Virus record (IMG/VR): IMGVR_UViG_2531839440_000003
Coordinates: 1 to 41,145 of that record
Source of the DNA: a virus
Taxonomy: Duplodnaviria > Heunggongvirae > Uroviricota > Caudoviricetes
DNA: 41,145 bases
Reading direction: 5' to 3' (one strand)
The notes below the pieces were generated by a model. That model searched no databases. It was not told where the DNA came from and saw only the letters and a program-made list of their open reading frames with translations. How positions within the stretch are numbered: the first letter of the stretch is position 1; every line of letters starts with the position of its first letter. Below, piece by piece: positions 38,501 to 40,431 of this stretch. The position numbers were made by a program, and so were the translations under genes.

Positions 38501-38822
38501 TTCTGATATTTAATTCACGGGAGGTTTAATATGCACAGAATTGACACTCCGACAGCAGTTAAAGATAAATTTGGCCCGGGCAAGAACGGATTTACTGACG
38601 GGAATATTCGTACAGGGCGTCATGCCACCTGGCTGAACAGTGCCATGTGGGATGCCCTTCAGGAGGAAATCTGTGGTGTCATTGAGAAGGCCGGGATAAA
38701 ACTGAATAAAGAGGAACACGACCAGTTATATAAAGCCATATTATTACTGGTTGGCGGTGCGATTAACGAAGAGGCATTGCTGATAAAAAATAATCTTTCG
38801 GATATCGGGTAATGACTCCAAC

Positions 38823-39326
38823 TTATTGATAGTGTTTTATGTTCAGATAATGCCCGATGACTTTGTCATGCAGCTCCACCGATTTTGAGAACGACAGCGA
38901 CTTCCGTCCCAGCCGTGCCAGGTGCTGCCTCAGATTCAGGTTATGCCGCTCAATTCGCTGCGTATATCGCTTGCTGATTACGTGCAGCTTTCCCTTCAGG
39001 CGGGATTCATACAGCGGCCAGCCATCCGTCATCCATATCACCACGTCAAAGGGTGACAGCAGGCTCATAAGACGCCCCAGCGTCGCCATAGTGCGTTCAC
39101 CGAATACGTGCGCAACAACCGTCTTCCGGAGCCTGTCATACGCGTAAAACAGCCAGCGCTGGCGCGATTTAGCCCCGACATAGCCCCACTGTTCGTCCAT
39201 TTCCGCGCAGACGATGACATCACTGCCCGGCTGTATGCGCGAGGTTACCGACTGCGGCCTGAGTTTTTTAAGTGACGTAAAATCGTGTTGAGGCCAACGC
39301 CCATAATGCGGGCAGTTGCCCGGCAT
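38823..39326 (-). CDS. insB: IS1 transposase InsB (InsAB' by frameshift)
   Basis: 167-aa ORF matching IS1 InsB as recalled. Confidence 0.9.
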
Positions 39327-39520
39327 CCAACGCCATTCATGGCCATATCAATGATTTTCTGGTGCGTACCGGGTTGAGAAGCGGTGTAAGTGAACTGCAG
39401 TTGCCATGTTTTACGGCAGTGAGAGCAGAGATAGCGCTGATGTCCGGCGGTGCTTTTGCCGTTACGCACCACCCCGTCAGTAGCTGAACAGGAGGGACAG
39501 CTGATAGAAACAGAAGCCAC
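39245..39520 (-). CDS. insA: IS1 protein InsA
   Basis: 91 aa [43 protein letters not shown]..., matching IS1 InsA as recalled. Confidence 0.9.
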
Positions 39521-40431
39521 TGGAGCACCTCAAAAACACCATCATACACTAAATCAGTAAGTTGGCAGCATCACCCGGATATCGAAGACAGTGATGAGGC
39601 TGTTGAAAACCTCGGATTAAAACCCACGGTGGATAAGGCAAAAAATGCCGTTCAGCGTGATGGAGACACCATGACCGGGGAGCTGAAAATCCGTGGCGTT
39701 AATGCACTGAGGATTTTCAACGAAGCCTTTGGTCTGATTTTTCGTCGTTCGGAAGAGTGTCTGTACCTCATTCCTACCCGGAAAAATCAGGGCGAGAGTG
39801 GTGATATTGGGCCGCTACGCCCCTTTACGCTTAATCTCAGGACCGGTCGCATAACTATGGGACATGGTCTGGATGTTACAGAAGATGTATTTGCAGGCCG
39901 TTTTGCGATTAACAGCAGTAACGGAACGTGGATTCAGATGCGTGACAACAACGTTATTTTCGGGAAAAACAGGATAAATACTGATGCTGCTCAGGCGCTT
40001 CTGCGTCAGGATCATGCAGACAGAAAGTATTTCCTGGCTGGTCTTGGGAATAAGCAGTTTGGCATTTACATGATAAATAATAGCCGTACGGATAATGGTA
40101 CGGACGGTCAGGCGTATATGGATGATGCGGGAAACTGGCGATGTGGGCATCAGGTTATACCGTCAGACTACGGAAACTTTGATACCCGCTACCAGACCAA
40201 AACAGGTGGCGTACAGAATTTTCAGTATACCAGTGAGGTGTTTTACAACCCGGGCGGGAACGAGCACAGCTGGACGTTTCGAGCACCTTCTGGTTGTGTT
40301 TTGTCAGGCATTAATGTTCAGGATACTGGCCGTAACTCTGCAGACAATATCGGTGGCGTGTATTACAAACAGGCTCAGATTTATATTAATGGTGCATGGC
40401 GATCTGTATCAGGTTAATTAAGGAGAAAATA

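Follow-up and report, generated by a model that had tools for sequence, protein, structure and literature searches.

A recent IS1 insertion interrupts the Mu gpS-like tail-fibre gene of a phiP27-like Escherichia coli prophage

We analysed a 41,145-bp stretch of DNA, positions 1 to 41,145 of the IMG/VR virus record IMGVR_UViG_2531839440_000003 (hereafter the window). It is a prophage that runs from an integrase gene (positions 1 to 1020, minus strand) to a short remnant open reading frame (ORF) at positions 41017 to 41145, and it is phiP27-like, its early region being lambdoid and its contractile tail Mu-like. Its tail-fibre gene is interrupted by a copy of the insertion sequence (IS) IS1 at positions 38808 to 39575. 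The insertion is real, and it very probably represents a recent, lineage-specific inactivation of the prophage by IS1. The same lineage also carries a frameshift in the tail-terminator gene, and most likely the prophage cannot make infectious particles.

The IS1 copy, the only one in the window, is exactly 768 bp long, has its transposase genes on the minus strand and lies antisense to the fibre gene. It is abutted on both sides by a perfect 9-bp direct repeat, CGGATATCG, the left copy of which occupies positions 38799 to 38807 and is present once in uninterrupted relatives, and the right copy of which was located at 39576 to 39584 by repeat search. The start-to-start spacing returned by the repeat finder is 777, which equals 768 plus 9. 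With both strands searched, this 9-mer occurs at just these two places in the window, and the chance of a 9-mer match at one fixed spacing is 4^-9, or about 4e-6. The element follows nucleotide (nt) 277 of the fibre gene, that is, 92 codons plus 1 nt, and the interrupted product consists of 93 amino acids (aa), namely 92 native residues and a glycine, before a TAA stop codon (38810 to 38812) contributed by the IS end. When the IS and one repeat copy are removed, so that 38531 to 38807 is joined to 39585 to 40417, an open frame of 1110 nt (369 aa) ending at 40417 is obtained. A sequence-only reading of this DNA had described an intact 768-bp IS1 with both inverted repeats, insA and insB, placed between direct repeats after codon 92 of the fibre gene, whose removal restores one open frame through to 40417; all of these features were located as described.

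The target lies in an AT-rich region: the 30 nt that end at the target are 73% AT, which places them third among the 1080 such segments in the gene. AT-rich targets are favoured by IS1, as the older literature records. An exact 60-nt empty site, with 30 nt from each side and the target present once, was found in six fetched loci (L001, L018-L021 and L025). Because the empty sites are exact and hold the target a single time, the event was a simple insertion in which no flanking DNA was lost; an IS1-mediated adjacent deletion or rearrangement is ruled out, as both flanks are contiguous in these sites. A scan of positions 36400 to 41145 found no tandem repeats. Compared with the corresponding DNA of strain FDAARGOS_1077, the IS flanks differ by 1 nt in 6,848. 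Near-identical flanks, a perfect duplication and an undamaged IS all point to a recent insertion.

Both terminal inverted repeats are in place. The right one (IRR) spans 38808 to 38830 and the left one (IRL) 39553 to 39575; the right end of the element (GGTAATGACTCC...) begins at 38808, and the reverse complement of the left end (...GGCAGCATCACC) finishes at 39575. The repeats are imperfect, agreeing at 18 of the first 23 positions (GGTGATGCTGCCAACTTACTGAT versus GGTAATGACTCCAACTTATTGAT). insA (39245 to 39520, minus strand) encodes, from a GTG start, a 91-aa protein identical to K-12 InsA, with matches to the Pfam families Zn_ribbon_InsA and HTH_Tnp_IS1, while the insB frame (38823 to 39326, minus strand; 167 aa) matches DDE_Tnp_IS1 (E 2e-78); the Pfam accessions matched by the two frames are PF03811, PF12759 and PF03400. 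The A6C motif for −1 ribosomal frameshifting (AAAAAAC) lies on the minus strand at 39263 to 39269, at element position 307 and in the canonical orientation, and a −1 shift at this motif yields an open InsAB' frame of 232 aa. The insB frame is expressed solely as the InsAB' fusion. The role of the A6C frameshift and the general features of IS1, including the inverted repeats, InsAB' and the 9-bp duplication, have been described (PMC12428005).

The window copy is of the IS1A type. It shares with the K-12 IS1A/IS1E consensus the 768-bp length, the inverted repeats, the A6C/InsAB' arrangement, the 9-bp duplication and an identical InsA, and it agrees with K-12 IS1A at 765 of 768 nt, the three differences being S5C and S65R in the insB frame and one synonymous change. 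S5C and S65R are common to the copy in E. coli C, which matches at 767 of 768 nt with a synonymous remaining difference and is one of many 99.9% matches to IS1A-family copies in complete genomes. No copy identical at all 768 nt was found in the complete E. coli genomes, the best having one mismatch. IS1 itself is present in 4,971 of the 5,426 complete E. coli genomes searched, at a median of 11 places per IS1-bearing genome. The window copy is close to the consensus type reported to be active (PMC12428005) and is probably transposition-competent.

By homology, the interrupted gene is the tail-fibre gene, a counterpart of Mu gpS (gp49). This assignment follows from the match to PHROG 6859, the match to Mu gpS (PDB 5yvq), the Caudo_TAP gene downstream and the gp47 and gp48 genes upstream. 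The 5' part of the gene (38531 to 38807, plus strand; ORF as interrupted, 38531 to 38812) holds codons 1 to 92 plus 1 nt, and the 3' part (39585 to 40417, plus strand), which holds codons 93 to 369 for the shaft and the Mu-gpS-like receptor-binding domain, has neither a start codon nor a ribosome-binding site of its own. The restored protein matches PHROG 6859 (tail fiber protein) from end to end (E 2e-169), and its first ~120 residues strongly match the N-terminal modules of many other fibre PHROGs. Residues 122 to 368 align to Mu gpS 268 to 502 (PDB 5yvq and 9ki1; best domain E 1e-62, with an overall E of 2e-74 for 5yvq). Residues 32 to 99 align weakly but consistently to Mu gpS 36 to 99 (domain E 0.007), and this N-terminal segment includes the motif LLIKNNLS, just ahead of the insertion point. 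No Pfam domain was matched in the fibre. Among sequenced phages, phiP27 alone has a full-length homologue, at 59% aa identity, and the C-terminal domain (residues 122 to 368) is 57 to 69% identical at the aa level to fibres of SfMu, P2, P1, P7 and other phages.

In Mu, the N-terminus of the trimeric gp49 docks on a loop of gp48, and its C-terminus binds lipopolysaccharide (LPS) together with gp50, so that the gp49 fibres are LPS-binding organelles (PMC11915804). If the Mu arrangement is carried over, the fibre of the window prophage would likewise be trimeric and bind LPS, and IS1 would cut it just past the probable gp48-anchoring segment, removing the shaft and the receptor-binding domain. 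The two systems share a homologous C-terminal receptor-binding domain, a Caudo_TAP chaperone gene after the fibre gene and gp47 and gp48 genes before it. They differ in that the window fibre is shorter (369 aa versus 504 aa in Mu), an extra gene for a 349-aa protein stands between gp48 and the fibre gene, and neither an invertible G segment nor a Gin-type invertase was seen downstream of the fibre gene, where there is just the remnant ORF of 42 aa.

Related genomes supply both the empty and the occupied form of the site. A search for the uninterrupted fibre gene, which the sequence-only reading had proposed, found the restored gene in 35 of the 5,426 complete E. coli genomes, at 98.6 to 99.9% identity and mostly in human enterotoxigenic E. 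coli (ETEC). There are 36 full-length fibre matches in complete genomes, the 36th being that of strain Z0117EC0005, in which the gene carries a remnant of an IS21-family element. The IS1-interrupted allele was absent from all 5,426 complete genomes. At least 24 public contigs contain the left junction, and the assembly collection has the exact 93-aa product in 25 blocks; the right junction was found in 12 contigs by way of a 278-aa ORF written with a Met start, while exact look-up of the 3' fragment as a GTG-start (262 aa) or Ile-start (278 aa) product returned no matches. Among the right-junction contigs are some of 64 kb that begin within insA, cross the junction and extend into hyaA, and in several drafts 21-kb contigs cross the left junction and stop inside insB. 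The assemblies GCA_000354415.2 and GCA_000354435.2 contain both junctions, each on its own contig that ends within the IS, and their junction 60-mers match exactly. In GCA_000356725.1, a 923-kb contig (AQFI01000014.1) is 100% identical to window positions 28531 to 41145, a length of 12,615 nt.

These contigs bear directly on whether the IS1 is an assembly artefact, that is, a repeat misplaced in an intact fibre gene, the condition under which the sequence-only reading would have failed. In favour of an artefact, IS1 is highly repetitive (a median of 11 places in each genome that has it), repeats of this kind are well known to cause misassembly, and the insertion is missing from every complete RefSeq E. 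coli genome. Nevertheless, the contigs with the left junction (at least 24) and with the right one (12) belong to different assemblies, independent re-assemblies included; short-read contigs pass the junction and then end inside the IS as a real insertion predicts; and a perfect 9-bp duplication unique in the window is a signature of transposition rather than something an assembler produces. We therefore reject the artefact on the junction contigs and the target duplication, and its probability is very small.

One occupied site departs from this set. A metagenome scaffold (L008; ERZ28585971 scaffold_6779), equivalent to window positions 37625 to 38856, has an identical left IS1 junction, and its upstream gene for the 349-aa protein is an allele like that of E. 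coli E200139, with 6 mismatches to that allele and 12 to the window. Recombination, a chimeric assembly of the metagenome or a separate insertion at this site could each explain the scaffold.

The second late-gene lesion is a +1 frameshift in the tail-terminator gene (27071 to 27635, plus strand), which the sequence-only reading had also pointed out and which proved genuine. The frameshift falls in a run of seven G residues (G7) at 27394 to 27400, the only G7 in the window. The product matches the Pfam family Phage_tail_terminator (PF23840) and is 131 aa long versus 187, comprising 110 native and 21 out-of-frame residues, with the C-terminal 77 residues (41%) lost. Strain E200139, checked directly, has six G residues (G6) and a single 187-aa terminator ORF. 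The segment is held by 51 complete genomes, and the best matches listed span 210 nt versus the 211-nt query at 99.5% identity; since none of the listed matches reaches 100% and all are one base shorter, G7 is not among them. The exact 131-aa truncated product was found in 23 contigs, whose spread of lengths is almost the same as that of the IS1-junction contigs, and which include independent re-assemblies of SRR446845 and SRR446793 as well as the separate assembly GCA_029999815.1. Thus, the frameshift is real and travels with IS1 in one clonal group, as judged from the 23 contigs and the independent re-assemblies among them. A programmed frameshift site at G7 was ruled out, since relatives carry G6 and have the gene as one ORF of 187 aa. 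In Mu, gp37 is the terminator: it forms a cap over the tube and sheath, provides the docking point for the head and contacts the sheath through its C-terminus (PMC11915804). By analogy, loss of the terminator C-terminus should block tail completion.

Outside these lesions the prophage is well preserved. Between 17.1 and 41.1 kb, the G7 is the sole coding indel relative to E200139, the other differences all being substitutions; the ORF lengths of the window agree with the E200139 annotation, and the remaining late genes are collinear with those of this intact sister. In the early region, ten genes were sampled and each matches its PHROG profile over the full length; the full-length early genes include those for integrase, exonuclease, a helix-turn-helix (HTH) regulator, an O-like protein, a DnaC-like protein, a DUF968/HNH protein, RusA and Q. 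The genes for integration and excision, replication, regulation and lysis look intact, and induction of the prophage may still be possible and kill the host.

We propose that a common IS1A-type IS1 transposed into an AT-rich stretch of the fibre gene and duplicated 9 bp of target. The fibre is thereby cut to 92 native residues, approximately the segment that docks on gp48 in Mu, codons 93 to 369 are stranded without a start codon, and the downstream chaperone gene would be hit by polarity. The change from G6 to G7 in the terminator gene of the same lineage adds a second late-gene lesion. On this account the prophage was recently disabled and is confined to one clonal lineage, in which excision, replication, cell lysis and immunity may all still be possible. 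Adsorption would be lost through the missing fibre. The suggestion of a defective, recently decaying prophage in the sequence-only reading is upheld by the IS1 and G7 lesions in a late region otherwise collinear with an intact sister. The accompanying suggestion of fibreless particles fares less well: a complete absence of infectious particles is more likely, since the terminator lesion takes away part of a protein that, judging from Mu (PMC11915804), is needed to cap the tail and join it to the head, and it should also block tail completion.

Several points weigh against this account. We infer lost fibre function, chaperone polarity and non-infectivity from the lesions and the Mu homologues. 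Slippage could return the G7 run to G6, and some terminator protein could come from frameshifting at a low level. The 349-aa protein could in principle serve as a second receptor-binding protein, which would spare adsorption. Finally, the L008 scaffold may make "one clonal lineage" slightly too narrow, unless that scaffold is chimeric.

The IS1 insertion and G7 might have been fixed by selection rather than drift, with the host immobilising a killing prophage while keeping its immunity and cargo, and with codons 92 to 100 as a recurrent target. Sister prophages do have independent tail lesions (the ISEc62 remnant, an ISEc31 insertion and the FDAARGOS_1077 deletion, with ISEc47 annotated in AST240), and L008 shows the same IS1 junction on the other upstream allele. 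However, tail lesions leave induction and lysis possible and would give the host little direct protection, IS-driven prophage decay is expected under neutrality, and the independent hits in this fibre gene number two. Moreover, the AT-rich target alone accounts for the IS1 site, and L008 may be chimeric. We consider fixation by selection unlikely. The same low probability attaches to the broader proposal that the AT-rich codons 90 to 100 are a recurrent landing site for unrelated insertion sequences, with lineages related to ETEC knocking out the adsorption organelle of this prophage family again and again, perhaps under selection, and preserving the remainder; all the circumstantial hot-spot observations are accounted for by neutral decay together with a preference for AT-rich targets.

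It is less probable still that the prophage remains infectious without this fibre, having another receptor-binding protein, for example the 349-aa protein encoded at 37451 to 38500, so that the insertion changed its host range. An extra gene of PHROG 8291 does sit between the gp48-like and fibre genes, and some phages tolerate the loss of accessory fibres, as does laboratory lambda, which lacks side tail fibres. On the other hand, Mu-type gp49 fibres are LPS-binding organelles docked on gp48 (PMC11915804), and some relatives with the fibre have unrelated small ORFs in place of the 349-aa gene. Furthermore, the terminator frameshift in the same lineage separately compromises tail completion, which makes this alternative moot. 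Recent inactivation by IS1 in one lineage remains our preferred explanation, and the case is an ordinary one, made up of familiar components: IS1, Mu-type fibres, phiP27-like prophages and the decay of prophages through IS elements. E. coli prophages disabled by IS elements and frameshifts include those of the O157 Sakai prophage pool, and a frameshift in stf is present in lambda PaPa. The window prophage resembles such defective prophages in having small, recent late-gene or tail lesions in an otherwise complete prophage, and it differs from them in prophage family and IS type. Literature searches, including searches by accession number, found no paper describing this particular insertion.

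For annotation, positions 38531 to 38812, the IS and positions 39585 to 40417 should become one IS1-interrupted, Mu-gpS-like fibre pseudogene; the gene calls of the source assembly already contain the IS1 transposase and the split ORFs. The prophage is to be scored as defective, with two late-gene lesions, and prediction tools would probably call it complete. The IS1 junction and G7 together mark one clonal group of isolates. Taken with the IS hits in sister prophages, the case is a small, clean example of the fast decay of a tail module through resident IS elements, and its significance beyond annotation is small.

The window prophage is a relative of phiP27 (an Stx2e phage; NC_003356) rather than a Shiga toxin (Stx) phage. 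phiP27 is 95% identical in nucleotide sequence over 67% of window positions 30000 to 41145, so that late-region sequence and the Mu-like tail module are shared, and the sister prophages of the window are annotated with a P27-family small terminase (terS). The phiP27 fibre, however, is just 59% identical, and no ORFs of StxA or StxB size, as stx2e would require, are present between Q and the lysis genes of the window; that interval holds a DNA methyltransferase gene, three tRNA genes and a TerB-like gene. Near-identical sister prophages lie between yccA and serT (tRNA-Ser)/hyaA in human ETEC and related strains, and the host lineage of the window prophage is E. coli related to human ETEC, with serT/hyaA as the integration site. 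The closest complete sister is in E. coli E200139 (Mali), with 99.78% identity over 17105 to 38807, 99.6% identity over 39576 to 41145 and an intact fibre gene of 1110 nt. Positions 1 to 19000 are a lambdoid mosaic of which no complete E. coli genome covers more than 85%, with matches 96 to 98% identical; the late region, unlike the early one, has sisters at more than 99% identity, so the two modules differ in recombination history.

Lesions in the sister prophages take several forms. In Z0117EC0005 (L033; NZ_CP098223.1, locus positions 1501 to 3508), a degenerate ISEc62 (IS21 family) remnant of ~892 bp separately interrupts the same fibre gene; it follows nt 298, which puts it 21 nt downstream of the IS1 site, and gene nt 293 to 298 align on both sides of it. 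In JNE25-005 (L034; NZ_AP045057.1, 17454 to 19299), ISEc31 (IS3 family) interrupts the gp48/YmfQ gene. An ISEc47 (IS66 family) transposase is annotated somewhere within the late-region match of AST240 (H72). FDAARGOS_1077 has a deletion of ~6 kb, the missing segment being equal to window positions 25943 to 31960, from the head-tail joining through the tape measure genes.

Upstream of the fibre gene are Mu-type baseplate genes, gp44 to gp48, with a Baseplate_J match among them. The Mu gp48-like baseplate wedge protein (36468 to 37427, plus strand) is intact and matches the Pfam family Phage_Mu_Gp48 and gp48 of PDB 9ki1 (E 1e-7); from the Mu structure it is the expected docking partner of the fibre N-terminus. 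It is 319 aa long versus 180 aa for Mu gp48 and has a C-terminal extension of ~130 aa with repeated P-L-x-I-N...HFAVV motifs. The Prokaryotic Genome Annotation Pipeline (PGAP) calls its homologue in relatives a partial "YmfQ family" pseudogene, yet the frame is open. The 349-aa ORF (37451 to 38500, plus strand) between the gp48-like and fibre genes has a TTG start, and Mu has no gene there. Its product falls in PHROG 8291, a family of unknown function, had no Pfam match and no PDB sequence match, and might be an accessory tail or receptor-binding protein. In some fibre-keeping relatives (L018 and L021), two small unrelated ORFs replace it.

Downstream of the fibre gene, the tail-fibre assembly chaperone gene of the Mu gpU/lambda Tfa type (40432 to 40962, plus strand) is intact, with matches to the Pfam family Caudo_TAP (E 1e-20) and to PHROG 136. 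Strong polarity is classical for IS1, and the insertion is probably polar on this gene. The promoter scan found no outward promoter-like site at the right junction that could drive the 3' fibre part or the chaperone gene, and the only promoter-like site in the scanned region is the inward insA promoter in IRL. At the prophage end, the 42-aa ORF (41017 to 41145, plus strand) matches only the C-terminal ~40 residues of the fibre-related PHROGs 1141 and 7703 and is annotated in relatives as a DUF4376 fragment. It looks like what is left of a second cassette for a fibre or a chaperone, and no invertase was seen nearby.

The three tRNA genes lie at 16844 to 17093 (plus strand), between the DNA methyltransferase and lysis genes. 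One has a CAT anticodon (called Met by ARAGORN and tRNA-Ile in relatives), and the others are Arg-TCG and Arg-TCT, a layout that matches Stx-phage-like lambdoid prophages.

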